Sequence record: MF327006
DNA: 64,000 nt
Source of the DNA: Shigella phage Sf20
Strand: one strand, 5' to 3'
The position numbers were made by a program, and so were the translations under genes. Below are positions 15,478 to 58,977 of the stretch, piece by piece. Position 1 is the first letter of the stretch. Every line of letters begins with the position of its first letter. The notes under the pieces are model-generated. The model saw only the letters and a list, made by a program, of their open reading frames with translations. It did no database searches and was not told the DNA's origin.

Positions 15478-16878
15478 ATGGCAAACAATACTATTAACCA
15501 TGTAAAAGACGATGCTCAATACGTCAAGTTTAACCCTGTAAATGATTGGCCTCAAAGCATTACCAACGTACAAGCGGCTTTAGCCGCTATTAATGGCTTT
15601 GCCGTAAATGGATTACCGGACGCTACGGAAGATACAGCCGGGATCGCTGCAATCGCAACTCAGGAAGAAGTAAACGACGGCACTGTAGACAATAAGATCG
15701 TGACTCCAAAAACGCTAGCTGTTAAAATGTCACGTCCAGATGCTACAAAAGAAGTAAAAGGCATTACCCGATTTGCCACGATGGAAGAATCGCTGCAAGA
15801 GAGCAACGAGAACATGGCAATCGGTCCAGACACACTAAACCATTACTTCACCACTAAAAAGGCGTCAGAGAGCGTTCAGGGGACTATTAAGATATGTTCT
15901 CTTGAGGCGGCAAAGATTGGCAGTGATGACACAATGGCAGTAACACCGAAAAAGATGCACACTGCCATTGCACAGATTGTGCCGGGATTAATTCCAGATC
16001 AAAACACAGCAACCGAAAGCGCACAGGGTTTAGTTCAGTTAGCAACTAATGCGCAGGTTTTACAAGGCCAGATTCGAGAAGGTTTTGCAATTAGCCCTTA
16101 TGCATTTGCAAATGCTCGCGCCAATGAGAATCAGGCGGGTACTGTTAAGATCGCCAGCCAGTCACAGATGAATGCTGGTTCAGATGATACTGTAGTTGTT
16201 TCTGCTAAGAAGTTTGCAAGCACTAAGGCAACAACGTCTCAATACGGCATTGTTAAACTACGAGACACCGTAGGAAGTGAGGCTAACGCTGCACTATCAG
16301 CAAATGCTAAGGTTCTTCCTAGCACTGGCGGTACGGTAAGCGGAAACGTCTATAAAGGTTCAAACTCAGACGGCAACCAGTTTGTTACTAAAAATGAATT
16401 AGCGAATCACGCAATGCCAATTGGTGGTATTATCCTTTCTGGATTCAATGCCGATCGAGGTGACTTTCTGATCTGTAATGGTCGTTCACTGAATAAAAAT
16501 CAATATCCGCAATTATTTTCTGCGATTGGTTATACCTTTGGTGGTTCAGGTGACAATTTTAATCTTCCTGATATGCGCGGTTTAGTTGCTCGTGGTTGCG
16601 ATCATGGAAGAAACCTTGATCCAGGTCGTCGATTTGGTTCTTATCAAGAAGACGCAATGCAGAGAATTACTGGTAAATTCCCTGTAGCTGACCGCTGGCG
16701 CGGTTGGTATGGTGGCGCATTTACTGCACAGCGCGGTCAATGGAGCACGAACTATAAAAACGGTGGTGGTGATGATTGGGGTTCTACTGTTAACTTTGAT
16801 TCAGGAAGATCCGTAAGAACGGCTAACGAGACTCGCGTCAAGAGTCTGGCATTAAACTATATCATAAGGGTGCGCTAA
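15478..16878 (+). CDS. 12: short tail fiber gp12, 466 aa
   Basis: Repetitive Ala/Thr/Gly-rich fiber sequence, synteny. Confidence 0.8.
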   Translation: MANNTINHVKDDAQYVKFNPVNDWPQSITNVQAALAAINGFAVNGLPDATEDTAGIAAIATQEEVNDGTVDNKIVTPKTLAVKMSRPDATKEVKGITRFATMEESLQESNENMAIGPDTLNHYFTTKKASESVQGTIKICSLEAAKIGSDDTMAVTPKKMHTAIAQIVPGLIPDQNTATESAQGLVQLATNAQVLQGQIREGFAISPYAFANARANENQAGTVKIASQSQMNAGSDDTVVVSAKKFASTKATTSQYGIVKLRDTVGSEANAALSANAKVLPSTGGTVSGNVYKGSNSDGNQFVTKNELANHAMPIGGIILSGFNADRGDFLICNGRSLNKNQYPQLFSAIGYTFGGSGDNFNLPDMRGLVARGCDHGRNLDPGRRFGSYQEDAMQRITGKFPVADRWRGWYGGAFTAQRGQWSTNYKNGGGDDWGSTVNFDSGRSVRTANETRVKSLALNYIIRVR

Positions 16879-18647
16879 TGATTGAACAATTAAACATCCA
16901 CGAGATCCCACATGTTGACGGTGTACCAGGCGAAGGACAGCACCGTATTATTTGGATCAAGAATGGCGAATGTTTAAGCGCAGCAACGACACAGACTGGC
17001 AATGACGGGACGCTTAACCGCGCCCCGGTTGCAATTCAAGAAAACGTTGCACGCGTAAACGAAAACGCAAAATCAACCGTCGCTAAAGTTAACGAGGTTG
17101 TAACGGCGGTTAACGATATTAAAACAACTTTAGGGGTAATTTCTGACGGAAGTATCATTGATGTGGTTAACCAGACTGTCGCAAAAGTTGAATCCGTCGA
17201 AGAGAACTTAGGAGAAACAGCAAGAACTCTGCAAACAACGGTAGACGCTGTATCAGAACTTAACATCAAGATTGGTGATCGCCCCGCTGCCGATCCGAGC
17301 ACAAGAACAATCTATGATGACATTTCTTTCATCAAACAAGAAATGGGTTCTTATCCTAACTTTAATATCAATGGTTCCCCGGATGCTGGCAGTTCCGGTT
17401 CTGGCATCAAATACCGAGTTATTCAGAATACCGCAGCATTAAATGACCACGGTCGCCGAATCGTTCAGCTTGAAAACGACTGGCAAGATTCTGACGTAGG
17501 CGAGTTAACAAGACAAGTTAACAAAATGCGCAGTGAGATCGGCGACACGTCTCTTGCAACACAAGAAAATGTGTATGTTCGTCTCCGCACCAACGCAAGA
17601 AACATTGCTAACTTATCAAACGAAGTTCTAGAAGTCAAGAAAGCAATTTTGTTTGATTCAATCCCTGATATCGGGACTAAAGTCACTACGCTGGGAACTA
17701 ATTATGAACGTCTAAACAATGATGTTAATGGTGTAGATTCCGGTATTCGTCCTCGTCTTCTGGCTGTCGAGAATAAGATCGGAACGCCTCAATCGGCTGG
17801 AAGCATTGATTATCGATTAACCAACACAGAGCGAGAATTTTTAGATCTTAAACAGGTTGTTGGTGTAAGCGGTGCTGACGGTTTGCGCGGTGAAGTTGTT
17901 CGACTTTCCAATGAGATTGGCACTGACAGCGATCGACATACTCTAGCCGGACGTCTTAAAGTTGTAGAAAACACTCAGGGTCGGTTAGAAGCAAGCGTAC
18001 AGGACATGGAACAGATTGTAGGTGATCGCGAATCAGGTTTGACCGCTGGCGTTATTAAACTATCAAGTGATATCTATGGCGATGATGGTTCAGAAGATCC
18101 ATTTACTCAGAAAGGCGTGATTAAAATCGTCAAAGAGCTACAAACATCTAACGGAAACAAAGTAGATGATGTACCTGATGACGGTTTCCATTATCTGCGT
18201 AAGCGCGGAGAATGGGTGCAAGTTGCATATGCTGCTGGAGCATTTAAAAATACCGCAGATATTACGGTTGAACTTGACGAACAGGATGTTTATAAACCGA
18301 TTCCGCTTAACGACATGGCGGAAGAAGTTAATGCTCGTCAAATGGTGAAAAGTGAATCTGTTGTTACCGTTCAGGACAAAGGTTTATTCCGTTGTGTATT
18401 CCGTTGTGATGTACAAGCTCAACATAATGCAACATTCATTGTTGCGATTTTCAAAAATGGACAGATGGTACATGAAGCGAAAAATGGTCATTACGGAACA
18501 GACGAATTGATCAGCTATTCTACCAGTGCTTTCCTAAATATTGAAACGGGAGATCAGATTAACATCCGTATTAAGGGTGTATCTGCCGAAGCAGTAGCAC
18601 AGCCAGTACAAATTAAAGAGTTCCTCTTTGGGATTTCTCCGGTATAA
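16878..18647 (+). CDS. wac: fibritin (wac) with C-terminal extension domain, 589 aa
   Basis: N-terminus IPHVDGVPGEGQHRIIWIKNG like T4 fibritin; coiled-coil body; foldon-like GFHYLRKRGEWVQV followed by extra ~140 aa. Confidence 0.8.
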   Translation: MIEQLNIHEIPHVDGVPGEGQHRIIWIKNGECLSAATTQTGNDGTLNRAPVAIQENVARVNENAKSTVAKVNEVVTAVNDIKTTLGVISDGSIIDVVNQTVAKVESVEENLGETARTLQTTVDAVSELNIKIGDRPAADPSTRTIYDDISFIKQEMGSYPNFNINGSPDAGSSGSGIKYRVIQNTAALNDHGRRIVQLENDWQDSDVGELTRQVNKMRSEIGDTSLATQENVYVRLRTNARNIANLSNEVLEVKKAILFDSIPDIGTKVTTLGTNYERLNNDVNGVDSGIRPRLLAVENKIGTPQSAGSIDYRLTNTEREFLDLKQVVGVSGADGLRGEVVRLSNEIGTDSDRHTLAGRLKVVENTQGRLEASVQDMEQIVGDRESGLTAGVIKLSSDIYGDDGSEDPFTQKGVIKIVKELQTSNGNKVDDVPDDGFHYLRKRGEWVQVAYAAGAFKNTADITVELDEQDVYKPIPLNDMAEEVNARQMVKSESVVTVQDKGLFRCVFRCDVQAQHNATFIVAIFKNGQMVHEAKNGHYGTDELISYSTSAFLNIETGDQINIRIKGVSAEAVAQPVQIKEFLFGISPV

Positions 18648-18656: not shown

Positions 18657-18680
18657 GGGGCGTTAAGCCCCTTTTTCGTT
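18657..18680 (+). terminator. rho-independent terminator after wac
   Basis: Hairpin GGGGC-gttaa-GCCCC followed by TTTTT. Confidence 0.65.
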
Positions 18681-18693: not shown

Positions 18694-19626
18694 ATGTCAG
18701 GATATGTAACCAATAACCCAAGAGAATTAAAAGACGCTATTCTGCGTCGTTTAGGCGCACCAGTAATTAACGTAGAAGTAACAGAAGACCAGATTTACGA
18801 TTGTATTCAGAGAGCATTAGAACTCTATGGGGAATATCATTTCGATGGTGTGAATAAAGGATATAAAGTATTTCGTGTTAGTGCCGAGCAAGCGCAACAC
18901 GGGGTATTTGATTTAAGCGATTCTGGAGTATTCGCAGTAACTAAAATAATTCGAACAAACGTAGGTAGCGCGGCTACGATGGATGGTACTGCCGTTTATC
19001 CGTGGTTTACTGACTTTCTGTTGGGTTTAGCGGGTGTAAATGGCGGTTTAGGATCTGGCTGTAGTAAATTTTATGGTCCAAATGCAATGGGTGGTGATCT
19101 AGGATATTTCGAACAGCTTATGAGCTATAGAGCCACTATGCAAAATATGCTCAATCCGCTGCCAGATTATTGGTATAACAGCGCAAACGGACAACTTAAG
19201 ATAACAGGAAACTTCCGAGAAGGTGATCTCATTGTTGTTGAATTATATGTTAAAAGCTATGTAGACGTTCCTGATATGATCGGCGCGGTTGCTGGTTATG
19301 CTCATGCGGGAGGATGTTCTACCGCTGGCGGGATTAGCGCCGTTTATGATAATCCAACTGCTGGTTTAAGCGGGATTGTTGCTGGCATGGGACCGATCAG
19401 TGAGAACAAGCAGGGCGCATATAATAACCGTTGGGTTAAAGACATGGCAACCGCTTTCACTAAGGAGGTGTGGGGGTCCATCATGGCTAAACATCAAGGT
19501 CTGCAATTACCCGGCGGTGTCACTGTTGATGGTATCCGAATCATTGAAGAAGCACGCGCCGACATTGAGAAATTGCGACAAGAACTAGAATTATTAGATC
19601 CTCCGTTCGGCATCCTCATGATTTGA
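18694..19626 (+). CDS. 13: neck protein gp13, 310 aa
   Basis: Size and synteny. Confidence 0.8.
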
Positions 19627-48308: not shown

Positions 48309-49129
48309 TTAGTCACCTCACCGAAAATTGTAAATTGTCTACGATTCTCATCGCCGAAAGATTCTACTACGTCGTTTACCTTGACGCAAGTCCCGCGCGG
48401 TAAAATTACTTCACATTCGCAAGGGTTCCATGCAATTGACCCAACAACAAAACCTTTATGATCTTTTACGTCAATTACCCATGATACATTACAAGAATGT
48501 TGCATCTTTCCGGTCATTGATTCATATCGATTCTCACAATAAAGGCTAGTGCTGTTTGATAGCCATCCTCCAAAGATGATCGGTGTCATGCTGGTCGATA
48601 CAAAGTTTTTAAAGGTAAACTCCTTATCTTCAATGATGCGCTCTATTGTCTGAATGTCAAGATGTTGACCGCGATAAAGAGTACCGTTTAACTTTTCGGT
48701 TTTATCCATGACACAATCCATCAAATCAACAATCTCTGATATCTCATCGGTCATGTCTTCTTCCCCTAAGAGAGCACCATTTACCCATTCGTATTGCTCA
48801 GACACATAATCACATATTGCATTATATTCTGCTGGGGTTATGTTGTTATGTTTGTAATGTTTGAATACATTATCTCCAAAGTCTTCGGAGTGTACTTCAT
48901 ACATCACATTAATGATTTTCTTGACAAATCCATAATCTTGTGTCTCACGCTCAAGGAAGCGGATAACCTTCACATAATCATCAAAGTTAATCTGATCGCT
49001 GATCATCTCAGTGATCATGTAACCATTAATCCCCTCAATGTCATATGTTTCGATGTAATTATCCATACGTTCCATCATTGATTCGCGTGATTCTTCTGAA
49101 AGACGAAAATCCTGTAATTTCTTGAACAT
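48305..49129 (-). CDS. Alt-like mono-ADP-ribosyltransferase paralog, 274 aa
   Basis: R-S-E catalytic triad signature: LYRGQ, FVSTS, ECEVILP. Confidence 0.6.
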   Translation of the reverse strand: MFKKLQDFRLSEESRESMMERMDNYIETYDIEGINGYMITEMISDQINFDDYVKVIRFLERETQDYGFVKKIINVMYEVHSEDFGDNVFKHYKHNNITPAEYNAICDYVSEQYEWVNGALLGEEDMTDEISEIVDLMDCVMDKTEKLNGTLYRGQHLDIQTIERIIEDKEFTFKNFVSTSMTPIIFGGWLSNSTSLYCENRYESMTGKMQHSCNVSWVIDVKDHKGFVVGSIAWNPCECEVILPRGTCVKVNDVVESFGDENRRQFTIFGEVTK

Positions 49130-49150
49130 TTTAAGCCTCCCATATAACAG

Positions 49151-49190
49151 AAAACGGGGCTAGTATAAAACTAGTCCCCGTTTGAGTCAA
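49151..49190 (-). terminator. rho-independent terminator downstream of alt (minus strand)
   Basis: Minus-strand stem-loop (CGGGGACTAG..CTAGCCCCG) followed by TTTTCTGTT. Confidence 0.55.
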
Positions 49191-49207
49191 CCATTATTTC
49201 TTAAAAA

Positions 49208-51333
49208 TTACATTTTAAATTTATCTGGCATTGCGTCTACAGATACCAGGTCAGCGATAAGCTGACGTAGAGTTGCCTTATCTGCTTTCTTACGTTCGGT
49301 TTTAGCTTCGCTAATGAAGCTGGAGAAAGACAGGTCAGAAGCAGGTTTAACAACACCTTCACGGATGAATGCATCACCGTCCGCGATCATCTCGCCAGAT
49401 TCTTGTAATGCTGCCAGTTCATTTTTGTTCATAATATGTGCCTCAATGTAATAAGTTTCTTGTGAATCCGTCGATGCCGTAGCACGAGTTACCGTATCAA
49501 AGGATAACACAACACCGCGAGGAAGTAAAATCTCGCATTCTTTGTAAGCAAATGCTTTGTTACCTACTGGCAAGACAGGGATGTTTTCCGCGCCAGCAAT
49601 GGAGAAAGCAACATTAGCGCCACCTTCACCGCGAGAGCCAGCCATAGAATCAACACCAGCAACGGCACTAGCCACGTTTGCATTCCAGCCGCCAAAAATT
49701 CACCGCGAGAGCCAGCCATAGAATCAACACCAGCAACGGCACTAGCCACGTTTGCATTCCAGCCGCCAAAAATGTTAGGTGCAAGGGAAGTGCTCACATA
49801 GTTTTTAAAGTAAAACGCTTTTTGCTTACGTGCAGTTTCCCACATTTGCGACCGGAAGTCCATACCACGATACAGAATAGTACCCGGATCAAGTTTAACA
49901 CCATAGTTAGAGAAGGCATTATCCAGTGCATCGCACATCTTGACCAATTCTTCTGGATCTGCGATTCCCTCAAACTCTTCCAGCTTACGATCAGTTAGGA
50001 AGTTGTTCATATTGATGTATGCTGCATCGGCATATTCGCTCAACACAAAACCTTCCGCGCCTGGCAGATCAAGATCAATATCTGCCATCATTTCACCCAT
50101 GTTGCTAGCAATTGCTTCAAACATACCGGAGGCAACATTACGTAGGGCATCGGTTTTAATCTGGGTGATATGACTACGCAGCATTTCAGCTTTTACATCT
50201 GCTGGCATAGACTGGTCTACTCGATCCATTGCCAAGGCGGTGATCTTGTTTTCGAATACTTCCTCGCTCATGATTTCTTTTAAGCGTTTGACCGAGGCTG
50301 CGATAACTTCCGCAGACAATGGGTCATATTGATCCTGAACTTTTACCAGTTCGCTTACTGCGTATTTTGCATCGGCTTCGCTTTCAAAAATAGTACGCAT
50401 GAAACCATAGCGAGTGATAATATCACTTGTCCAGTCATTCAGAGAACGGGCGGTTGAACGTTCTAAGGCTTGACGGTCAATCAGAGTATTAAACTGTTTC
50501 TTAGGTTCTGCTTCGGTGATATCTTCTTCCGGTTTAAGATTAATTTTTTCTGGATGATTCACATAGTCGCTGTTATAGGTCGCTTGAGTTTTCAGCATTT
50601 CTTCTTTAGTCAAACGAGATTTAGCCGCTACGCGTTGTTCTGCTTCCGCGTTTCGTTCTTCTTCTGACACAAGACTAGCCGCATACGCCTCATCTTTAGT
50701 CAGAGATTCACCAGTAGCCTTAGATACCCAGCGATCACCTAAATCACTTTCTACTTTAGTGAACAAGGATTCATCAAGTTTAATCCCTTTAATCTTATCA
50801 ATCGCCATCCCGCGACGCTTGACAACAACTAAAGCGATCTTTTTGCTGGTCATTACTTCCTGCTGGAATACTTCAAACTTCGGTGTACGACGCACCAAAC
50901 GCTCTATAACGCGCTTAACCAGTTCGGTCTTACCTTTCATGCGGGATACGTTAAAACGGAACATAACAGCGTCTAATTGAGCTTTACGGGCTGTTTCCAT
51001 AACCACATCAAAAGCACTTGCCATAACTGCAATCGGGTTATCGCCTAGACCATTTTTAAGCTGTATAATACGACCGCTTTTGTTCATTTCGCACAGTACA
51101 ACATGTGCGGTCTTGTCACCCATACGAATGATTTTAGGTGTTTTGTTGGTGAAGTTGCAAAGACGGACAATCACATCTTTATCGCGTGTCTGTACTGCAA
51201 AAAGCTGTTTAGGATTCTGCTTAGGCTTTAAGCACTGTACAGGAGCAATACTGCCAAAGTTTTCTTCCTCTTCCGTCAACAGCCATTTCTCGAAAGATTC
51301 AATCATTAGATCGTCGATTTCTAAGTTAAACAT
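49208..51333 (-). pseudogene. alt: alt (ADP-ribosyltransferase) disrupted by 74-bp tandem duplication frameshift
   Basis: 589-aa ORF (49564-51333) carries LYRG and YVSTS; 155-aa ORF (49208-49675) carries the ExE motif KECEIL; both encode ASAVAGVDSMAGSRGE from the duplicated segment; removing one copy gives a single ORF of about 683 aa (T4 Alt is about 682 aa). Confidence 0.75.
49625..49772. repeat. perfect tandem direct duplication, 2 x 74 bp
   Basis: 49625-49698 is identical to 49699-49772 (TTCACCGCGAGAGCCAGCCATAGAATCAACACCAGCAACGGCACTAGCCACGTTTGCATTCCAGCCGCCAAAAA). Confidence 0.9.
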
Positions 51334-51375
51334 TTTATATCCTCTAGTTGATAACCTATAAACCTATATTTATGA

Positions 51376-51400
51376 AAACGGGGCTTAACGCCCCCTTTTT
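51376..51400 (-). terminator. terminator-like hairpin GGGGC-ttaac-GCCCC between small gene and alt
   Basis: Hairpin at 51380-51394 flanked by A-run and T-run; same hairpin sequence recurs at 55644. Confidence 0.5.
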
Positions 51401-51401
51401 A

Positions 51402-51614
51402 TTATAATGCACCATCAAGCAATTGCTCTAAGGTGTATCCTGAATAGTCTTTTTCAATCAGGATATATTTTCCTACTCGTTTAATACAACCACGCATTTC
51501 AACGTATTCTGCGTAGTTGATGGTACGAGTTGTTCCATCTTCCAGTAATGCAGTACCGATTTCGTTAATGCGGTCATAAGTTACGTCGGTAATGATGATT
51601 TCGATGTTAGCCAT
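51402..51614 (-). CDS. hypothetical protein, 70 aa (starts MANIE)
   Basis: ATG 51614 with RBS AAGGAG; ORF-track GTG extension would overlap the promoter cassette. Confidence 0.5.
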   Translation of the reverse strand: MANIEIIITDVTYDRINEIGTALLEDGTTRTINYAEYVEMRGCIKRVGKYILIEKDYSGYTLEQLLDGAL

Positions 51615-51650
51615 TTGATACTCCTTAGTAGTTCGTTTCGGTATGTGTGC

Positions 51651-51679
51651 ATTATAGGGGATCACCGATCCCCTGTCAA
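51651..51679 (-). promoter_or_regulatory. PeSL-like cassette promoter 1: TTGACA - GGGGATCGGTGATCCCC - TATAAT
   Basis: Plus attata 51651-56, 17-nt hairpin spacer, tgtcaa 51674-79. Confidence 0.6.
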
Positions 51680-51686
51680 CAACTTT

Positions 51687-52205
51687 TTAGTTATTTTTTA
51701 ATTGTTCATCTTGCAATAATGCAATCACATGCTGGCGATGTTCTTCCGATTGAGGTACACCGAAAAAGTTTGTTTTGTAGAAATACTCTAATCGGTCTTC
51801 TCGTGTGCTCTCTTCCATCATGATCGCGGGTAGTCCGAGATTTCGGAAACGTCGCTTTTCTGCTGGCGTAAAATCACTGTAATACAACATAGAATCATCA
51901 TTACAAGCAATGCTAAACTCATCCTTCATAAAGGAGAATATTGCGTTTAAACGCTGTTTACCGTCCACGATTTCGATCTCATAGCGAGAGCCATCATCAA
52001 TCTTAGCCATTGCGATAGCACCAACCGGAAAATCATTAATCAGGTTTTCAATAAACATACGTTTGTTTTCGGTGTCCCATACTAAAGGACGCTGATAATC
52101 TGGGTTCATGTTGATATAGCCATCTTCTAACCATGCTTCGTAAACAGAGATAACAAAGTTTTTAGTATTGGTATAGTAGCGGCGTTTAGGCGTTAAACGG
52201 TTCAT
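51687..52205 (-). CDS. DUF262 / ParB-like nuclease-domain protein, 172 aa
   Basis: Motifs DYQRPLVW and DGKQRL; ATG 52205 one nt after upstream stop, RBS AGGAG. Confidence 0.55.
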   Translation of the reverse strand: MNRLTPKRRYYTNTKNFVISVYEAWLEDGYINMNPDYQRPLVWDTENKRMFIENLINDFPVGAIAMAKIDDGSRYEIEIVDGKQRLNAIFSFMKDEFSIACNDDSMLYYSDFTPAEKRRFRNLGLPAIMMEESTREDRLEYFYKTNFFGVPQSEEHRQHVIALLQDEQLKNN

Positions 52206-52206
52206 G

Positions 52207-52536
52207 TTATAGTCTCCTGAATGGGTCATCACGTAAATCAATATCTTTTAAGAACTCATCCCATGAATGGCGGATATTGTTCTTAATTCTCCAGATGAGC
52301 GCAGGGATTGAACGCTCTCCCATCTGGAAGTATGGATCATATGATCCGTATGCCCAATATGCTACTACAATTCCACAATCAGAGCAATAGTATTCTATTT
52401 CACTTGCTGGCGACCAAAGTCCATCAATATGATCGGTGATCTTGCTTTCGATGTTATGGCTATGACAATCAGGGCAACGGATGCAATGACCTTGTTTATC
52501 GTAATTTGACGTTAGCGAATACTTAAACAATCTCAT
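52207..52536 (-). CDS. zinc-ribbon protein, 109 aa
   Basis: Cys clusters CIRCPDC and CSDCG; start overlaps upstream stop (TAATG). Confidence 0.55.
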   Translation of the reverse strand: MRLFKYSLTSNYDKQGHCIRCPDCHSHNIESKITDHIDGLWSPASEIEYYCSDCGIVVAYWAYGSYDPYFQMGERSIPALIWRIKNNIRHSWDEFLKDIDLRDDPFRRL

Positions 52537-53252
52537 TATAGATCCTTATTTGCTTCAAATACTGCCTTTGCGAATCCTCGCGGGGTAAGTGACCTTATAG
52601 TCTTTGTTTTCGTTCCTTTCCCGCCTAGCTTAGAATGCTGTTTACTGTACCCTTTATTAATCTGCAACGGTTTCTTTTCTGGCATTATAAAGCCTTGTCC
52701 GGTCCATAAGCAAGTCTTTTTTGGGTACATATCACGGGCGGCAATATACTCAGGAAACGTAGGATGCTTATCATCTTCCGGCAAATAACCGCCATATTCC
52801 CACGGATGGAACATATAATCAGGCTTACGCCACATGCTAGAGATAACGCTTACAGGATTCTCTATCATGTAGGGAACTCCTAGCCATTCACCCAAATAAG
52901 CGGTTATTTTAGCTGCCCGTACATCATGAACTTGAATCAATGGTCCTTGTTCTCGTTTCTTTCGTTCAAAGTGCGCAGCGCCACTAACAGCTAAATTGGT
53001 GCACGGTGGGAATGCAAAGATAATATCCGGTTTCCCCCATTCAAGGTCCATTGCTCTTTCCAGCCAGTTCAAATCAATCCATGTGTTTACATAGGTAATG
53101 TTTGGATGTTCAAATCTGGTATTATACTTTTTGTATGTGCCGTGGTCGCCATCATCAGCATTAAAGCAGATCACCTTATGACCTGCTTTAGCCCATTCTA
53201 GCCCCATTATCCCCGATCCGTCAAAGTTACAGAATATTAATTTTTGTTTCAT
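52536..53252 (-). CDS. C5-cytosine methyltransferase-like protein lacking a target-recognition domain, 238 aa
   Basis: Motif I FCNFDGSG, FNADD, motif IV FPPCTNLAVSGA (PC), motif VI MIENPV; RBS AAAGGGG. Confidence 0.5.
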   Translation of the reverse strand: MKQKLIFCNFDGSGIMGLEWAKAGHKVICFNADDGDHGTYKKYNTRFEHPNITYVNTWIDLNWLERAMDLEWGKPDIIFAFPPCTNLAVSGAAHFERKKREQGPLIQVHDVRAAKITAYLGEWLGVPYMIENPVSVISSMWRKPDYMFHPWEYGGYLPEDDKHPTFPEYIAARDMYPKKTCLWTGQGFIMPEKKPLQINKGYSKQHSKLGGKGTKTKTIRSLTPRGFAKAVFEANKDL

Positions 53253-53494
53253 ATACGCCCCTTTAATCCAACACAGATTTTAGAAGGTTCTTTGCCGTGC
53301 CACATTAAGTAAAGTCCGTTAATGCGGCCTTGTTTTGTATATGATTCTTTTCTGATCTTCTTATAGTGTCGTGTTTCCTCAGCCGATTGTTTAGAATACC
53401 AATCATAAAGGAAGATGAACAAAGGCCACCCATTAGCGGCCTTAATGCAGTTATTCAAAAATTCCTTATTGCGTTTAATTAATTTTCTTTTCAC
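53249..53494 (-). CDS. hypothetical protein, 81 aa (GTG start)
   Basis: GTG start overlaps upstream stop (GTGA); no internal ATG near the start. Confidence 0.4.
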   Translation of the reverse strand: MKRKLIKRNKEFLNNCIKAANGWPLFIFLYDWYSKQSAEETRHYKKIRKESYTKQGRINGLYLMWHGKEPSKICVGLKGRI

Positions 53495-53742
53495 GCTGCC
53501 CCCATTGGTTTGATAGTAACAGAATCTAAAAGACCTTTGTTAGCCAGTTCGCGGCAAGTTTTCAGATCCGCAACTTCCCAACCAGCCGCAATCAGGTTAT
53601 CAATCAGGCTGTTAGCAACTTCTTCGCTCATGAAAGAGCACTGTTTGCCGATGGTGTAGCGTACACGCTGTAATTTCAGTTTACGGAAGCCTTTAACGTT
53701 CAGGTCTTTAGCGATTTTCTTTGCGGTTTCGATGTTAGCCAT
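53491..53742 (-). CDS. hypothetical protein, 83 aa (starts MANIE)
   Basis: First gene after cassette promoter 2; RBS AGGAGA; first 16 nt of CDS identical to the 70-aa gene at 51614. Confidence 0.5.
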   Translation of the reverse strand: MANIETAKKIAKDLNVKGFRKLKLQRVRYTIGKQCSFMSEEVANSLIDNLIAAGWEVADLKTCRELANKGLLDSVTIKPMGAA

Positions 53743-53782
53743 TGTTTGATTCTCCTAAGTGGTATCTCGTCTTGATGGTTGT

Positions 53783-53811
53783 ATTGTAGGGGAGTTATCC
53801 TCCCCTGTCAA
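53783..53811 (-). promoter_or_regulatory. PeSL-like cassette promoter 2: TTGACA - GGGGAGGATAACTCCCC - TACAAT
   Basis: Plus attgta 53783-88, 17-nt hairpin spacer, tgtcaa 53806-11. Confidence 0.55.
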
Positions 53812-53825
53812 CACTTTTTATAAAA

Positions 53826-53993
53826 TTATTTGTTAATTTCTGGTGCGTTGCTAGGATAGTAACCTTCTTTAACACCCAGATATTTTGCAACCATCCCTAC
53901 AATCTTCTGTGCTACTACAATGTCAAATTTCAGATAATCTTCGCCGTGGGTTTCAATGATATATGCTTCACATGCTGCTTTAGTCTCGAACAT
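53826..53993 (-). CDS. small hypothetical protein, 55 aa (paralog copy A)
   Basis: MFETKAACEAYIIETHGEDYLKFDIVVAQK..; about 85 percent nt identity by eye to copy at 57593-57760. Confidence 0.55.
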   Translation of the reverse strand: MFETKAACEAYIIETHGEDYLKFDIVVAQKIVGMVAKYLGVKEGYYPSNAPEINK

Positions 53994-54026
53994 TTTGATT
54001 CTCCTATTTCGTTTCGTTATGTGTGT

Positions 54027-54055
54027 ATTATAGGGGATCTCCCGATCCCCGTCAA
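54027..54055 (-). promoter_or_regulatory. PeSL-like cassette promoter 3: TTGACG - hairpin GGGATCGGGAGATCCCC - TATAAT
   Basis: Plus attata 54027-32, 17-nt hairpin spacer, cgtcaa 54050-55. Confidence 0.55.
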
Positions 54056-54069
54056 CAACTTTTTTAAAA

Positions 54070-54351
54070 TTATTCGTGATTAGTTTCGATGTTGTGCATT
54101 TTGCACCAGTTCAGCCAATCACCCAGATCCTGATAGTTAATGCTTTTATCTGCTGCCATCGTTTTTGTCTTGATACCCATATGTGCGTTATGAGTAAGCA
54201 TTTTTACAGTGAACTCAATTTTATCACCTTTAGCTTTAACATCAACCAGTTTGGTCCACTGGCTACCAGCGCCGCGAATGTTCATACCAACGATGTTTCC
54301 GATGTATGCTTCTTTGTTTTTCAGGATTTCGGTTGCTTTGATGAATTTCAT
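54070..54351 (-). CDS. hypothetical protein, 93 aa
   Basis: ORF starting directly downstream of cassette promoter 4 and conserved leader. Confidence 0.5.
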   Translation of the reverse strand: MKFIKATEILKNKEAYIGNIVGMNIRGAGSQWTKLVDVKAKGDKIEFTVKMLTHNAHMGIKTKTMAADKSINYQDLGDWLNWCKMHNIETNHE

Positions 54352-54384
54352 TTTTGATTCTCCAGTTCGTTTCGGTATGTGTGT

Positions 54385-54413
54385 ATTATGCTATGTTCTT
54401 ACTTTGGTGTCAA
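54385..54413 (-). promoter_or_regulatory. PeSL-like cassette promoter 4 (degenerate): TTGACA - N17 - CATAAT
   Basis: Plus attatg 54385-90, tgtcaa 54408-13; spacer not palindromic. Confidence 0.45.
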
Positions 54414-54421
54414 CAACTTTT

Positions 54422-54691
54422 TTAGATATTTTCAGAAATAAATTTTAAAACTTGACGTAAATGTTTCTCATCTTTGATAGTCGCCGGAAGTTCTTCTTTT
54501 ACTTCCTGTGCAAGATAGATATTTCCGTTCCAAGTGAAAGATCCGTCTTCGTTTACGCGATAGCTGAACATCCACTCGCAATCATTTTCGATTTCATATA
54601 CACACAGAAGGGTGTAATCGTTAAAGCTATTGATTTCAAGGTCGAAGCCGTGACGTTTTGCAAAGTTGGTAGTGGTTTTAGTCAGAGCCAT
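54422..54691 (-). CDS. hypothetical protein, 89 aa
   Basis: ORF downstream of cassette promoter 5. Confidence 0.5.
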   Translation of the reverse strand: MALTKTTTNFAKRHGFDLEINSFNDYTLLCVYEIENDCEWMFSYRVNEDGSFTWNGNIYLAQEVKEELPATIKDEKHLRQVLKFISENI

Positions 54692-54731
54692 TGTTTGATT
54701 CTCCTAAATGGTATCTCGTTTCGATGGGTGT

Positions 54732-54760
54732 ATTATGCTATAGGCCGGATCTGGTGTCAA
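54732..54760 (-). promoter_or_regulatory. PeSL-like cassette promoter 5: TTGACA - CCAGATCCGGCCTATAG - CATAAT
   Basis: Plus attatg 54732-37, 17-nt spacer, tgtcaa 54755-60. Confidence 0.5.
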
Positions 54761-54770
54761 TGCCTTTTTT

Positions 54771-54801
54771 AAAAAAGCCGACACTAAGGTCGGCACATTT
54801 T
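54771..54801 (-). terminator. terminator hairpin GCCGACACTAAGGTCGGC
   Basis: Hairpin 54777-54794 flanked by A/T runs, just downstream of stop at 54800; identical hairpin at 55279. Confidence 0.6.
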
Positions 54802-55111
54802 AAAAATTCTTGCTATATATGCAAGCCTCATAATCTAGAGGATGACCGCCAATCCTACCCGGCTTAATATTCCAACCGCATCGATATTTGCTGACCATGC
54901 TAACAGTTTCGGTTCTTAGAGCATTTCTTTGCAAATCATACCCCCTAAATTCTTGTCTATAAGGACAGTCCGCTTTGCAAGTTGGCGGTTCTACGTCATT
55001 TAGAGGGTCGGAAGCAGTTGGCTTTATTATCAATTCTTTGTTTGCAATAATCATAAGCACATCCCATTGAAGACAATTTAACATCTTCGCAATAAGTGTT
55101 GAATCCGTCAA
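54800..55111 (-). CDS. hypothetical Cys-containing protein; start uncertain (TTG at 55111, ATG at 55084 or 55054)
   Basis: 103-codon ORF whose 5-prime part overlaps the 63-aa ORF in another frame; possible frameshift or overlapping gene. Confidence 0.35.
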   Translation of the reverse strand: MTDSTLIAKMLNCLQWDVLMIIANKELIIKPTASDPLNDVEPPTCKADCPYRQEFRGYDLQRNALRTETVSMVSKYRCGWNIKPGRIGGHPLDYEACIYSKNF

Positions 55112-55187
55112 ACACGATCACTTCGTATTTGACTCCATCAGCGATAGCTTTTACTTTATACCATCCATGCTTGTATAAAATCTTCAT
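54996..55187 (-). CDS. small Cys-rich protein, 63 aa
   Basis: ATG 55187 with GAGGA RBS downstream of cassette promoter 6. Confidence 0.45.
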   Translation of the reverse strand: MKILYKHGWYKVKAIADGVKYEVIVFDGFNTYCEDVKLSSMGCAYDYCKQRIDNKANCFRPSK

Positions 55188-55219
55188 CTTTATTTCCTCG
55201 ATCTCGTTTCGATGGGTGT

Positions 55220-55249
55220 ATTATGCTATAGGCTAGACCAGGTTGTCAA
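55220..55249 (-). promoter_or_regulatory. PeSL-like cassette promoter 6: TTGACA - N18 - CATAAT
   Basis: Plus attatg 55220-25, tgtcaa 55244-49. Confidence 0.5.
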
Positions 55250-55271
55250 CAACTTTTTTAATTTTTTGGAA

Positions 55272-55300
55272 ATAAAAAGCCGACACTAAGGTCGGCTAAT
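55272..55300 (-). terminator. terminator hairpin GCCGACACTAAGGTCGGC (second exact copy)
   Basis: Hairpin 55279-55296 followed on minus strand by TTTTTATTT. Confidence 0.6.
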
Positions 55301-55304
55301 AAAA

Positions 55305-55613
55305 TCATTTAGACAAGTAATCATTCTGTGCAATACGGTCGGCGTATGCTGGTGTTATGTCAATCGCCAGCACTTTAACGCGTGCTTTCTTGCGACCTGG
55401 GTTTTCTCGTAACCAGTGCTCATGACCGTGAACATTTTTATACTTTGATGCTTCTTCAAATGTACGGATCGGACCTGGGTAATCAGCGTAAAGGATCTCT
55501 AGGTCTTCGGTGATGTAAAAATATACATCGTAATTACTGTTCTCTAGTTTAAGCAGAGAGTTGCGAAATTGTGGTAAATTCTCGCGGGTAAATTCAACTA
55601 CAAGATTTTTCAT
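55305..55613 (-). CDS. HxHW-family small protein, paralog A, 102 aa
   Basis: Signature YDVYFYITEDL ... HGHEHW ... VLAIDI; RBS GAGGA. Confidence 0.55.
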   Translation of the reverse strand: MKNLVVEFTRENLPQFRNSLLKLENSNYDVYFYITEDLEILYADYPGPIRTFEEASKYKNVHGHEHWLRENPGRKKARVKVLAIDITPAYADRIAQNDYLSK

Positions 55614-55639
55614 AGTGATATCCTCATTCAGATAGATTA

Positions 55640-55660
55640 AAAGGGGGCTTAACGCCCCGT
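55640..55660 (-). terminator. terminator-like hairpin GGGGC-ttaac-GCCCC
   Basis: Hairpin 55644-55658 downstream of stop at 55664. Confidence 0.5.
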
Positions 55661-55663
55661 ATA

Positions 55664-55951
55664 TTAAAACAGTCCTTCCTGTACACCGTAGTAGAGTTCA
55701 TCGCTGATAATTTCATTAATGCGACGGTGTGCATATTCCTGATTTGCGAAGTTATCAGCAAGTTCTACTTTAGTTTCGCCGTCATGAGTCCATTTAGTGA
55801 TAACTTTACCATCTGCAAATTTGAAGTTGAACTCTTTAGCTACTGCATCGCGTACCAGACGTGCGAACTTGTTGTTACGGATTGCATTATCGGTTTCGTG
55901 TGCAGCGTGAGCGAATTTGTTAACTTTCAGAGTGATAGTAATGTATGCCAT
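55664..55951 (-). CDS. hypothetical protein, 95 aa (paralog of the gene at 58978-59289)
   Basis: Shared segment LVRDAVAKEFNFKF vs EVRKALAKEFNTKI. Confidence 0.5.
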   Translation of the reverse strand: MAYITITLKVNKFAHAAHETDNAIRNNKFARLVRDAVAKEFNFKFADGKVITKWTHDGETKVELADNFANQEYAHRRINEIISDELYYGVQEGLF

Positions 55952-55997
55952 AATTTGATTCTCCTAGTTAGAAAGTGTATCTCGTTTCGATGGGGAT

Positions 55998-56026
55998 ATT
56001 ATGCTATATCCCCGATCCGGTGTCAA
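55998..56026 (-). promoter_or_regulatory. PeSL-like cassette promoter 7: TTGACA - CCGGATCGGGGATATAG - CATAAT
   Basis: Plus attatg 55998-56003, 17-nt spacer, tgtcaa 56021-26. Confidence 0.5.
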
Positions 56027-56032
56027 CACTTT

Positions 56033-56311
56033 TTATAAAATAATTTTTTGATATTTTTCTATGATGTTCGTGTAAGTCACATCAACCGCTAGCACCGTTG
56101 CTTCGAATCCACCGTTTAGCCAATGGCTATGATCATGATCGTGAAAGAAACCTAGACCAGTACGAAGACCTTCTTTATATTCTGCGCGTACATTCAGTTT
56201 GTCGTCGATAAACAGATAAAACCATGAATTTTTACTAGGATTGATGATACAACCTTTCAGATTAGGGAGAATATCACGACTAAGAATAAACTTATCACCT
56301 ACTTTGAGCAT
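56033..56311 (-). CDS. HxHW-family small protein, paralog B, 92 aa
   Basis: Signature WFYLFIDDKL ... HDHSHW ... VLAVDV; start at ATG 56311 with RBS GAGGAAAA (ORF-track extension trimmed). Confidence 0.5.
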   Translation of the reverse strand: MLKVGDKFILSRDILPNLKGCIINPSKNSWFYLFIDDKLNVRAEYKEGLRTGLGFFHDHDHSHWLNGGFEATVLAVDVTYTNIIEKYQKIIL

Positions 56312-56325
56312 AATATTTTCCTCAC

Positions 56326-56634
56326 TTATAAAGTTTGACCGTTGTTTTTCGCGTAATGCTGAATGCGTGCTTGATCTGCTTCCGCTGGTGATAGATTCCA
56401 TGCGATCACTACAACTTCTGACGCATCATGATCATTATCACTTACCCAATGATTATGATTCATACAATTGTTTGCTATCGCGTGAGCAAATGATCTCATT
56501 ACCGGAGACGTATAATCATAGTAACGGATTTTCAGATTTTCATCAACGTACAAGTAGATCGTATACGGCTTATATTCAGTAACCAGTAACAGACAGTTAC
56601 GCAATTCTGGGAAAATCTTTTTAGTTAATTTCAT
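56326..56634 (-). CDS. HxHW-family small protein, paralog C, 102 aa
   Basis: Signature YTIYLYVDENL ... HNHW ... VIAWNL; start at ATG 56634 (N-terminus MKLTKKIFPEL parallels paralog A). Confidence 0.5.
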   Translation of the reverse strand: MKLTKKIFPELRNCLLLVTEYKPYTIYLYVDENLKIRYYDYTSPVMRSFAHAIANNCMNHNHWVSDNDHDASEVVVIAWNLSPAEADQARIQHYAKNNGQTL

Positions 56635-56635
56635 T

Positions 56636-56866
56636 TTATAATCCTCGGTCGCGGCTATAGTAAACGGTACGCCATACAATTTCATGTTTCGTGTCGCTCC
56701 AGCACACGATCTCATTTACTCTTAAATCTTTGTTATCAACAAAAGATGAACATTGTGACGCTTCTTTCATCATTTTATCTGCTGTTTTCTCATCAAATAC
56801 AGCACAGATTTCTTTATACACTCGATAATCTTTGAATTGACTCTGAATACCCATAATTAACACCAT
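56636..56866 (-). CDS. hypothetical protein, about 76 aa (paralog of the gene at 56814-57077); start uncertain
   Basis: Shared segment FKDYRVYKEICAVFDEKTADKMMKEASQC vs FKEYKAYQQILRVYAPEFAEKMMEDASKC. Confidence 0.4.
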   Translation of the reverse strand: MVLIMGIQSQFKDYRVYKEICAVFDEKTADKMMKEASQCSSFVDNKDLRVNEIVCWSDTKHEIVWRTVYYSRDRGL

Positions 56867-57077
56867 TCCAACCAATTGTTTTTGAGAAAACGTTTATCCA
56901 CTGTTGAGTGTAACATGTTTCTTTCCATGATACAATACGAGTAGAATAATGGTTTTTGTTTCCAGAAAAGGACGGGCATTTTGATGCATCTTCCATCATC
57001 TTTTCGGCGAACTCTGGTGCGTATACTCGCAGGATCTGTTGATATGCTTTGTATTCTTTAAATTTGCTCATAATCAT
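56814..57077 (-). CDS. hypothetical protein, 87 aa
   Basis: ATG 57077; 3-prime end overlaps the start of the downstream paralog in another frame. Confidence 0.45.
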   Translation of the reverse strand: MIMSKFKEYKAYQQILRVYAPEFAEKMMEDASKCPSFSGNKNHYSTRIVSWKETCYTQQWINVFSKTIGWNGVNYGYSESIQRLSSV

Positions 57078-57336
57078 TCACTACCTTATCAGCTTCTTTT
57101 GTTGTTTTTACATCAACTGCGATAACTCGTAAAGGTTCGTCATGGTTCCACCAGTGGTCATGAATATCAGCTTGTGATTTATCACCAAAGGAATCACGAA
57201 TATCATTTTTACATTTATAGCTAATGTGACCTTCATAGTCAACATAAAGGTAATTATCGAAAATCGGCGTTTTTAAGATCATACCGAAAAATCTTTCTTT
57301 GTGTGTCTTATCCAGCGTTGCAGTAATTCGCATCAT
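57058..57336 (-). CDS. HxHW-family small protein, paralog D, 92 aa
   Basis: Signature NYLYVDYEGH ... IHDHWW ... VIAVDV; RBS AAGAGGA. Confidence 0.55.
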   Translation of the reverse strand: MMRITATLDKTHKERFFGMILKTPIFDNYLYVDYEGHISYKCKNDIRDSFGDKSQADIHDHWWNHDEPLRVIAVDVKTTKEADKVVNDYEQI

Positions 57337-57348
57337 AATATATTCCTC

Positions 57349-57528
57349 TTAGAAAGGGATGGTCATTTCTTGAGCTTGTACGTTCTCGTTAGGATTAAAC
57401 TTCATCCAGCCGATATTGTCTACCAGCATATGCACATTTTTATCATATCCTACGTGGGTAGTCAATACTGTATGTGCTTTACCTTCAATGATGAGTTCCA
57501 TGTACTTCTGAACTTCGATAGCTTTCAT
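57349..57528 (-). CDS. small hypothetical protein, 59 aa
   Basis: ATG directly after conserved cassette leader (GGAGAATCAAA-ATG); below ORF-track size cutoff. Confidence 0.45.
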   Translation of the reverse strand: MKAIEVQKYMELIIEGKAHTVLTTHVGYDKNVHMLVDNIGWMKFNPNENVQAQEMTIPF

Positions 57529-57560
57529 TTTGATTCTCCGTTTGTTGTCTTGATGGGAGT

Positions 57561-57589
57561 ATCTTACTACTCCCTTTAATCATTGTCAA
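57561..57589 (-). promoter_or_regulatory. PeSL-like cassette promoter 8: TTGACA - N17 - TAAGAT
   Basis: Plus atctta 57561-66, tgtcaa 57584-89; GGGAGTA..TACTCCC hairpin in leader. Confidence 0.45.
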
Positions 57590-57592
57590 CTA

Positions 57593-57760
57593 TTATTTGT
57601 TAATTTCTGGTGCGTTGCTCGGATAGTAACCTTCTTTAACACCAAGATATTTTGCAACCATTCCGGTGATCTTCTGTGCTACTACGATATCGAATTTCAG
57701 GTAGTCTTCACCGTGGTTTGCTACAATGTACGCTTCGCATTCTGCTTTAGTCTGGAACAT
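57593..57760 (-). CDS. small hypothetical protein, 55 aa (paralog copy B)
   Basis: MFQTKAECEAYIVANHGEDYLKFDIVVAQK..; ORF-track TTG extension trimmed. Confidence 0.55.
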   Translation of the reverse strand: MFQTKAECEAYIVANHGEDYLKFDIVVAQKITGMVAKYLGVKEGYYPSNAPEINK

Positions 57761-57794
57761 TTTTGATTCTCCTATATCTCGTTGGTATGTGTGC

Positions 57795-57823
57795 ATTATA
57801 GGGGATCGGTGATCCCCTGTCAA
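57795..57823 (-). promoter_or_regulatory. PeSL-like cassette promoter 9: TTGACA - GGGGATCACCGATCCCC - TATAAT
   Basis: Plus attata 57795-800, 17-nt hairpin spacer, tgtcaa 57818-23. Confidence 0.6.
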
Positions 57824-57828
57824 CAACT

Positions 57829-58122
57829 TTATAATGCTTTATATGCGTATTTCATAAATTTGTCTGCCACTTCATTGGCATGTTCAGATTCTACGCCTGA
57901 TTCGAGAACAATAGCTAGGTCGGTTTCGTCATTCCCGCCGTACCAATGATTTGATGTTCGATTTTTTTCAATTGGAAAGTGGTCACTTTTATCTGTGCGA
58001 CAAAATACATCTAAATGCTCGTCGATGTAAAAGATCCAATCTTCATAAAGAATAACGGTATTAGCAAGATTTTTATTGCCTTCAACGAAAGGTTCGGCTA
58101 CAAACAAATTAGTATGTTCCAT
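57829..58122 (-). CDS. HxHW-family small protein, paralog E, 97 aa
   Basis: Signature DWIFYIDEHL ... SNHW ... AIVLES; start at ATG 58122 with RBS GAGGAAA. Confidence 0.45.
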   Translation of the reverse strand: MEHTNLFVAEPFVEGNKNLANTVILYEDWIFYIDEHLDVFCRTDKSDHFPIEKNRTSNHWYGGNDETDLAIVLESGVESEHANEVADKFMKYAYKAL

Positions 58123-58138
58123 AGTATTTTCCTCAAAA

Positions 58139-58330
58139 TTATACAGCTTCGTAAACTTCCCAATGTCCAACACCAGCACGCTTAACGAAAAGGTTTTCTT
58201 TGATGTTATTCATAAACGTCTGGATGGATTTAATGCGGTTTGAAGGTTTCCATTCTTCGTTGGCATTGCGTCGATACATCATAACATTACCAGTTCGCTT
58301 ATATTCAGCAACCATTTTAAGACCACACAT
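58139..58330 (-). CDS. hypothetical protein, 63 aa
   Basis: ATG 58330 with RBS GAGGA. Confidence 0.45.
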   Translation of the reverse strand: MCGLKMVAEYKRTGNVMMYRRNANEEWKPSNRIKSIQTFMNNIKENLFVKRAGVGHWEVYEAV

Positions 58331-58387
58331 AATATTATCCTCAATTTGTGGGAGAGTATTACCCCTCCCAATGATTGTTATGTTATA

Positions 58388-58708
58388 TCACACAAAATGG
58401 CGTGTCAATGCTTCTTTTGCGGTTCCGCTAAGACTTTCGATCTCGCCTGGCATAACATCAACCGCCAGAACTTCTACAACATCCTCGGACCCTAACCAGT
58501 GAGTATGACCTTTGTAGAACTTGATAACCAGACTACCTTCCTCGTCCCATTTAACGCTATCGCTAGCCCACCACACATCACAGTCGATAAAGTTGATGTA
58601 AAGCACACTACGCCACATTGAATTAATTACTTTCAATATTGCGCCTTTCATCTCTTCCACGGTATGGTCTTCCATTTTGAAGACCTCACCTACCTGAACT
58701 TTTGCCAT
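58388..58708 (-). CDS. HxHW-family small protein, paralog F, 106 aa
   Basis: Signature VLYINFIDCDV ... GHTHW ... VLAVDV; RBS GAGGTGA. Confidence 0.55.
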   Translation of the reverse strand: MAKVQVGEVFKMEDHTVEEMKGAILKVINSMWRSVLYINFIDCDVWWASDSVKWDEEGSLVIKFYKGHTHWLGSEDVVEVLAVDVMPGEIESLSGTAKEALTRHFV

Positions 58709-58725
58709 TTAGTCACCTCTCTTTA

Positions 58726-58905
58726 TTACATAACAATCACGCCAGCCGTTGAAAGTTGATGTTTCAACTGAGCATTTTCTGCTACCGTCAAATCAATGAT
58801 TTCTTGTGACGCTGCAATCATATAGCCATTGGTGATATTGTTTTGCATCAGTTCAATGGTTTCTTCGTTGTAGCGGATTTTAGCGATGATTTCGTTGAAG
58901 TTCAT
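58726..58905 (-). CDS. small hypothetical protein, 59 aa
   Basis: ATG after conserved cassette leader; below ORF-track size cutoff. Confidence 0.45.
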   Translation of the reverse strand: MNFNEIIAKIRYNEETIELMQNNITNGYMIAASQEIIDLTVAENAQLKHQLSTAGVIVM

Positions 58906-58939
58906 AATTGATTCTCCTAGTTCGTTTCGGTATGTGTGT

Positions 58940-58969
58940 AGTATAGGGGAGTTTAACCTCCCCTGTCAA
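58940..58969 (-). promoter_or_regulatory. PeSL-like cassette promoter 10: TTGACA - GGGGAGGTTAAACTCCCC - TATACT
   Basis: Plus agtata 58940-45, 18-nt hairpin spacer, tgtcaa 58964-69. Confidence 0.5.
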
Positions 58970-58977
58970 CAACTTTT

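Follow-up and report, generated by a model that had tools for sequence, protein, structure and literature searches.

Recurrent terminator-like hairpins in the RB49-like Shigella phage Sf20 and their relation to promoter-early stem-loop cassettes

Location and anatomy of the hairpins

We analysed a 64,000-nt stretch of DNA from Shigella phage Sf20 (sequence record MF327006; this whole stretch is called the window below) for two short GC-rich hairpins, hairpin A (GGGGCTTAACGCCCC) and hairpin B (GCCGACACTAAGGTCGGC), which recur as identical copies behind different genes. The part of the window between 51 and 56 kb is matched by about 60 Krischvirus records and shows 99.5% identity to Krischvirus RB49 (OZ035808) and 97.8% to the RB49 reference genome (NC_005066); as judged from these alignments, the window is that of an RB49-like Krischvirus, a T4-type phage. 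The minus strand carries all genes from alt (49564..51333, minus strand) to past 56 kb, and on the plus strand an open reading frame (ORF) of 589 aa at 16878..18647, followed by another at 18694..19626, corresponds in size and synteny to wac and gene 13 of RB49. The copies of the two hairpins lie at the following positions:

18657..18671, plus strand: hairpin A between wac and gene 13; exact match, 9 nt past the wac stop codon TAA (18645-18647), with the ATG of gene 13 at 18694
51380..51394, minus strand: hairpin A between ORF185 and alt; exact match, 7 nt past the ORF185 stop codon (51402-51404) and 46 nt before the alt ATG (51333)
54777..54794, minus strand: hairpin B copy 1, stem-loop between ORF195 and ORF194; exact match, 5 nt past the ORF195 stop codon (54800-54802)
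55279..55296 (stem 55278-55297), minus strand: hairpin B copy 2, stem-loop between ORF197 and ORF196; exact match, 7 nt past the ORF197 stop codon (55305-55307)
55644..55658, minus strand: hairpin A between ORF198 and ORF197; exact match, 5 nt past the ORF198 stop codon (55664-55666), with the ORF197 ATG at 55613

The 15-mer of hairpin A reads on the plus strand at 51380-51394 and 55644-55658 and on the minus strand at 18657-18671, where the plus strand reads GGGGCGTTAAGCCCC. In the RNA sense, the sequence is GGGGCGUUAAGCCCC in all three A copies and GCCGACCUUAGUGUCGGC in both B copies, and the orientation relative to transcription is the same throughout. The exact recurrence that the initial annotation had reported for both hairpins was confirmed at each of its coordinates. 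No other copy of hairpin A was found in the window at up to one mismatch and none of hairpin B at up to two, and 100 dinucleotide-preserving shuffles of the window gave no match to A, as did the shuffles searched for B; the excess over chance, named by the initial annotation as a point to be checked along with a genome-wide search, was thus borne out. In the complete RB49 genome (164,018 bp), there are exactly three copies of hairpin A and exactly two of hairpin B at the corresponding sites, and the relatives carry them at orthologous sites. "Recurrent" therefore means a low copy number for both hairpins. These positions and repeats were read directly from the genomes. The window contains 47 perfect GC-rich hairpins, with three recurring cores, namely A, B and the internal stem-loop of promoter cassettes, and the RB49 genome contains 78 with 71 distinct cores, five of which recur. 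An Rfam scan of positions 50500-57000 (E<=1) returned no known RNA family, the single sub-threshold match being Ysr49, whose 21 bits fall short of the gathering score of 95.

All five copies begin 5-9 nt past a stop codon on the transcribed strand, which is TAA for wac, ORF185, ORF198 and ORF195 and TGA for ORF197. Hairpin A has an all-G:C stem of 5 bp around a 5-nt loop, and hairpin B has a stem of 6-7 bp around a 6-nt loop. The predicted folding energies of the five copies range from -11 to -16 kcal/mol in contexts of 51-53 nt, with z values between -3.2 and -0.7, and a U-tract follows directly after the stem at four of the five sites, being only partial at the ORF198/197 copy of A. At wac, the stem of hairpin A is extended to 8 bp by A:U pairs (AAAGGGGC...GCCCCTTT, 18654-18674) and followed by the T-run TTTTT, and the RNA fold reaches -16.3 kcal/mol (z -3.2); the initial annotation had called this copy the wac terminator, which is a fair label. 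The alt copy (-14.2 kcal/mol) lies between an A-tract and a T-tract and has the tail GTTTTC, so that it resembles a terminator on either strand.

A simple terminator scan of positions 45000-64000 listed all four copies within that stretch. Moreover, terminators are annotated in the G37-3 record (by ARNOLD) at both minus-strand A sites and at its single B site, and in the GEC-3S record at all three A sites and at its single B site. The terminator upstream of alt is conserved in five of six T4-like genomes (Nolan et al. 2006, PMC1524935). The hairpins share with the intrinsic terminators of T4-like phages the GC-rich stem-loop with a U-tract directly past a stop codon and the conserved site upstream of alt; they differ in that a single 15-nt sequence serves three sites in the phage studied here. 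In T4 itself (AF158101, 93596-93611), the corresponding place between wac and gene 13 is likewise occupied by a hairpin; this one, GGGGCCGCAAGGCCCC, consists of G/C runs around a GCAA tetraloop, is of different sequence and lacks a T-run.

Taken by their anatomy and by the annotation of other groups, all five copies look like intrinsic terminators or attenuators, which agrees with the earlier designation of the hairpins as terminators. We consider it very probable that hairpins A and B are intrinsic (Rho-independent) terminators or attenuators, with B forming part of the promoter cassettes that bound ORF195/196 and A standing alone at three fixed sites. Hairpin A would then serve as a terminator after wac in late plus-strand transcription, and before alt and between ORF198 and ORF197 in early minus-strand transcription.

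Hairpin B and the ORF195/196 cassette

Promoter-early stem-loop (PeSL) cassettes are known from T4-type phages (Arbiol et al. 2010, PMC2839356; Comeau et al. 2014, PMC4122927). They were defined in RB49 and phi1, and the "eight PeSLs in ~5 kb" described around ORF192 (PMC2839356) are those of the present region. Judging from its setting, hairpin B supplies the stem-loop of two such cassettes, which together bound a polymorphic segment:

54692..54799 (108 nt), minus strand: PeSL 195/194 with hairpin B, T-run, AT-rich tract, sigma-70-type promoter, 5' leader and Shine-Dalgarno sequence; the ORF194 ATG lies at 54691
55188..55304 (117 nt), minus strand: PeSL 197/196 with hairpin B, T-run, AT-rich tract and promoter; the ORF196 ATG lies at 55187
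54795..55296, minus strand: polymorphic cassette of 502 bp with one hairpin B, a promoter, ORF196 (54996..55187) and ORF195 (54800..55054), bounded by the two hairpin B repeats

Downstream of copy 1 on the minus strand (fold -14.3 kcal/mol, z -3.1) follow TTTTTT, an A-tract, the -35 element TTGACA (54760) and the -10 element CATAAT (to 54732). Copy 2 (-11.3 kcal/mol, z -2.7) is succeeded by TTTTT, an AT-rich tract, TTGACA (55249) and CATAAT (to 55220). Both promoters thus have the form TTGACA-17/18 nt-CATAAT and lie 17-30 nt past the hairpin with A/T tracts in between, followed by a conserved leader, a Shine-Dalgarno sequence and the ATG, and both scored 11/12 in the promoter scan. A repeat finder assigned the whole PeSL element of about 100 nt to repeat families scattered across 51-60 kb (D4, D5, D8 and D13 for PeSL 195/194; D5, D6, D7 and D13 for PeSL 197/196), and hairpin B together with its A-run forms a 23-nt exact direct repeat of two copies (family D13). 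The genes flanking both elements are the hypothetical ORFans RB49p194-197.

This arrangement, with hairpin B, AT-rich tract, sigma-70 promoter and leader in succession, is that of the PeSL subclass whose stem-loop precedes the AT-rich tract and the -35 element, one of five stem-loop subclasses distinguished in PMC2839356. The likeness extends to the location in the hyperplastic region of the very phage lineage in which PeSLs were defined, to the flanking ORFan cassette ORF195/196/196.1, and to the gain or loss of the flanked ORFs with junctions inside the repeated element, as described below for the 502-bp cassette in G37-3 and KFS-EC. We found no essential difference between hairpin B and the stem-loop of a PeSL. 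For the activity of the parts and for mini-circles, we draw on the literature on neighbouring PeSLs: parts of PeSLs showed promoter activity, the stem-loop of PeSL211/210 equalled rrnB T1 in termination strength in a reporter assay, and the crossover of a mini-circle was located in the RB49 ORF194-195 PeSL, which had recombined with the ORF190-191 PeSL (PMC2839356).

The polymorphism of the cassette and its junctions were observed directly in the genomes. The cassette is present in 16 of about 57 Krischvirus records, which cover the full 851-nt query, and absent from about 40, which cover the roughly 52% of the query lying outside it. Accordingly, one hairpin B is found in G37-3, KFS-EC, GEC-3S, Phi1 and Skers, which lack the cassette, and two copies in RB49, SAP and JK32; ORFs 195, 196 and 196.1 had already been listed as specific for RB49 compared to phi1 (PMC2839356). 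In the blast alignments of G37-3 and KFS-EC to the window, the match breaks off at 54794 and resumes from 55201. The single element of G37-3 is a chimera that aligns with the upstream flank of window copy 2, the hairpin and the promoter of window copy 1; because of this composition, the crossover is placed inside the exact hairpin repeat. The junction of KFS-EC lies a few nucleotides beyond the hairpin in the AT-rich tract.

Translated searches (tblastn) with ORF195 gave matches only in carriers of the cassette, plus homologues of 59-64% in unrelated Escherichia and Desulfovibrio phages. The ORF195 of JK32 is 100% identical to that of the window, whereas the neighbouring genes are only about 90% identical.

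In the proposed mechanism, hairpin B would end one early transcript just ahead of the next early promoter. The PeSLs, of about 100 bp each, are direct repeats, so that homologous recombination between two of them could excise or insert the intervening DNA, and the two identical copies of hairpin B would be the repeat ends left by such recombination around the ORF195/196 cassette. The proposal of the initial annotation that the hairpins are duplicated as modules and may delimit mobile units thus fits hairpin B, with its direct repeats at the ends of the 502-bp cassette, as a case of known biology; for hairpin A, which lacks a promoter and shows no indel at its minus-strand copies in about 56-58 genomes, it finds little backing. 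The phenomenon itself is already known, having been published for the same phage lineage and locus, and the region is the type case for the shuffling of small-gene modules by PeSLs in T4-type phages. What the present analysis adds is a genus-wide count of the ORF195/196 cassette polymorphism and, for G37-3, the placement of a junction in the hairpin repeat.

The morons of lambdoid phages are insertions composed of a promoter, an ORF and a terminator. The ORF195/196 cassette resembles them in having its own promoter and terminator and in being present or absent between otherwise collinear genomes. Unlike what would be expected of a moron by composition, its G+C content (0.384) is not distinct from that of its surroundings (0.397), and it is apparently gained or lost via homologous recombination between repeated regulatory cassettes instead of illegitimate insertion.

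Two further cassettes of the RB49 reference are missing from the window, namely those of ORF186 (about 210 bp) and ORF192 (537 bp). Their junctions at 51614-51655 (ORF186) and 54070-54074 (ORF192) both lie within PeSLs, in the leader/-10 part in one case and in an AT-rich tract in the other, and the case of ORF192 is that of Figure 3 of PMC2839356. Because the ORF186 and ORF192 cassettes are missing and ORF195/196 is present, the window is, by gene content, a mosaic that lacks ORF192 like phi1, contains ORF195/196 like RB49 and lacks ORF186 unlike both.

As a separate observation on the cassette, ORF196 (54996..55187) and ORF195 (54800..55054), which are in different frames, have 59 nt in common, and the two may represent one gene split by a frameshift.

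Hairpin A at three fixed sites

No sigma-70 promoter was found between any copy of hairpin A and the next ATG, which is 22-46 nt away. Hairpin A is therefore not a PeSL. At its minus-strand sites, about 56-58 related genomes align through without indels, the sole breaks lying in the PeSL at about 51655, and neither a deletion between the direct copies nor an inversion involving the wac copy was detected in these related records. Variants do occur in relatives: KFS-EC has GGGGCGTTAATCCCC, a stem-breaking G>T change, at the alt copy only, and GEC-3S, Phi1 and Skers have GGGGCGTTAACGCCCC at the ORF198/197 copy only, a perfect 16-nt palindrome with a 6-bp stem and a TTAA loop (HpaI site) compared to which the 15-mer of the window is 1 nt shorter. 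All of these variants are single locus-specific changes, and the lengths of the flanking G- and C-runs also differ among relatives. Concerted evolution of the A copies by gene conversion is unsupported, the variants being locus-specific. Going by the available genomes, the copies of hairpin A are stable genome parts and not the ends of a mobile unit.

The most likely origin of the three copies is a common one, through local copying or recombination. In favour of it, recurrence is rare among the GC-rich hairpins of RB49, with only five of 71 cores, and a further 13-mer (GTTTATAGGTKAT) is shared by the wac and alt copies, located 7 and 18 nt downstream, respectively, and found nowhere else in the window; otherwise, the similarity among the A copies does not extend beyond the hairpin and its T-run. 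Two points weigh against a common origin. The 13-mer was found post hoc, so that its significance is overstated, and at least 120 unrelated viral contigs of IMG/VR contain an exact match to the 15-mer, mostly with A/T tracts, which leaves room for independent origins. Among the matches listed in IMG/VR, 87 of 120 loci with GGGGCGTTAAGCCCC (72%) have an A-tract and/or a T-tract, and the flanks fall into 94 distinct contexts; with two loop-permuted controls, 65 and 82 loci were obtained, 34-38% of which lie in an A/T-tract context. Because the count of the 15-mer is a lower bound, only the fraction in terminator-like context can be compared with the controls, and this difference (72%, among the matches listed, against 34-38%) suggests that the exact hairpin A is over-used as a terminator across many unrelated phages.

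Convergence on a favoured terminator design with a G4C stem, in which case exact reuse would say nothing about modules, is an unlikely alternative that draws on this distribution: the 15-mer is found in at least 120 contigs and stands in A/T-tract context more often than its loop-permuted controls, RB49 has three hairpins that combine this stem with a GAAA loop, plus several other G4C stems, and the wac/13 position of T4 holds a different hairpin with a G4C2 stem. It has to account for three identical 5-nt loops among few terminators with G4C stems, the chance of which is about 1e-4 by our own rough estimate (made without a tool), as well as for the extra 13-mer downstream of the wac and alt copies and for variants in relatives that are locus-specific single changes of one shared sequence. 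A common origin of the A copies is thus more likely than convergence. Tracing hairpin A beyond the genus by alignment gave no result; at the DNA level, other T4-like genera are homologous to the wac/13 region only from the start codon of gene 13 onwards.

We also compared the sequence divergence among relatives around the hairpin A copies, which brings in the gene located between the two hairpins:

55305..55613, minus strand: ORF197, between hairpin A (upstream) and hairpin B (downstream); divergent allele across the genus

ORF197 of the window is 83-91% identical to its counterparts in Phi1, GEC-3S, JK32 and Skers, whereas its neighbours ORF198 and ORF194 reach 96-99%. In the same four comparisons, there are at most two mismatches per 30 nt ahead of the ORF198/197 hairpin; precisely there, the number jumps to 7-8 per 30 nt, and it remains elevated over about 90 nt. 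Makalu_002 has a patch of divergent sequence at 18350-18620, in the wac C-terminus, which stops about 35 nt before hairpin A. Thus, two of the three A copies lie at, or within about 35 nt of, a sharp change in divergence (ORF197 5' end and wac C-terminus), and no divergence step was found at the alt copy and no indels at the flanks of any A copy.

One possible but doubtful explanation is that stand-alone terminator hairpins such as A act beside the PeSLs as short conserved linkers for allele exchange between related phages. The mismatch jump at the ORF198/197 copy, the low identity of ORF197 between A and B compared to its neighbours, and the end of the Makalu_002 patch short of the wac copy are all consistent with such a role. 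The same sites are also gene boundaries, however, and mosaic junctions that survive are to be expected there in any case; in addition, the divergent patch has its far end within ORF197 and at no hairpin, so that hairpin A need not cause the changes in divergence and its position at them may be incidental. An identity of 15 nt is, moreover, very short for homologous exchange, the alt copy is without a discontinuity, and no indel or rearrangement between A copies was found in about 57 genomes. A combined version, by which plain terminator hairpins are minimal linkers for allele swaps in Krischvirus (of ORF197 and the wac C-terminal domain) and GGGGCGUUAAGCCCC is in addition a preferred terminator recurring across many unrelated phages, appears distinctly improbable to us. 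The coincidence of a promoter-less terminator with a sharp divergence boundary is a hint added by this analysis; should it prove general, the PeSL idea, so far one of promoter-terminator cassettes, would be broadened a little so as to take in any conserved intergenic hairpin.

Termination versus RNA protection, and neighbouring features

Two points weigh against reading the hairpins as terminators. A literature search for transcriptomics of RB49 or Krischvirus found no transcript 3'-end data for any RB49-like phage. Furthermore, the ORF198/197 copy of A has a weak tail (CTTTTAAT) with only four U's, folds at -11.0 kcal/mol with a z value of -0.7, the weakest of the five copies, and has no promoter behind it; it must be leaky because otherwise ORF197 would not be expressed. 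Because of its weak tail and the missing promoter, this copy is probably an attenuator.

The need for read-through at this copy and the absence of a U-run from GGGGCCGCAAGGCCCC, the T4 hairpin in the wac/13 position, would also agree with hairpins that mainly act at the RNA level, as protective or processing structures at the 3' end that stabilise the upstream mRNA and not as sites of RNA polymerase termination. We regard this as very unlikely to be their main role, as four of the five copies have 5-6 T directly behind the stem and the PeSL stem-loop tested in the reporter matched rrnB T1 (PMC2839356), although RNA protection and termination are not mutually exclusive. Intrinsic termination or attenuation thus stays the preferred function of both hairpins. 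Finally, chance matches or a mobile hairpin like a repetitive extragenic palindrome (REP) or a miniature inverted-repeat transposable element (MITE), for which nothing speaks beyond the repetition itself, can be dismissed, as they are ruled out by the lack of any match in the shuffles, by the copy numbers (three and two per 164 kb) and by the fixed, orthologous positions over about 57 genomes; neither terminal inverted repeats nor target duplications were seen, and hairpin A shows no homology past the hairpin and T-run save for the 13-mer, noted post hoc, that follows the wac and alt copies.

Besides the two cassettes with hairpin B, further PeSLs lie in the same region, which contains at least six between 51.6 and 56.1 kb. 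They belong to repeat families and scored 11-12/12 in the promoter scan:

51629..51688, minus strand: PeSL with the internal stem-loop GGGGATCACCGATCCCC between -10 and -35, repeat family D1 and others
53761-53820: further PeSL
54005-64: further PeSL
54363-54422: further PeSL
55954-56048: further PeSL

The segments 53825-53996 and 57592-57763 form a 172-nt direct repeat of 87% identity, which spans a whole ORFan of 55 aa (53826..53993), the second copy being 3.8 kb off. Each copy stands behind its own PeSL promoter, and the repeat looks like an intragenomic duplication of a unit of ORFan and PeSL. The 5' end of ORF194 with its leader (54639-54738) is 77-78% identical over about 95-100 nt to T1-like Shigella siphophages with genomes of 51 kb (pSf-1 and SFP17), and 15 Campylobacter phage records were among the weak matches to 54600-55450.

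The alt gene contains a perfect tandem duplication of 74 bp at 49625-49773 (minus strand; 2.0 copies, 100% identity), which shifts the frame and results in an ORF of 589 aa (49564..51333) and another of 155 aa (49208..49675), compared to the 683-aa Alt of RB49. The duplication is missing from all 12 of the 12 best-matching relatives, whose matches cover 207 nt and not 281 nt, and it could be either a real mutation of this isolate that disrupts alt or an assembly artefact.

Other hairpins are reused in the RB49 genome as well. A second one with the same stem as hairpin A and a GNRA loop (GGGGCGAAAGCCCC) occurs three times (124104, 136849 and 148784), and a 13-nt hairpin (GTGCCGTAGGCAC) occurs twice (62797 and 150074), within an inverted repeat of about 33 nt whose copies are 87 kb apart.

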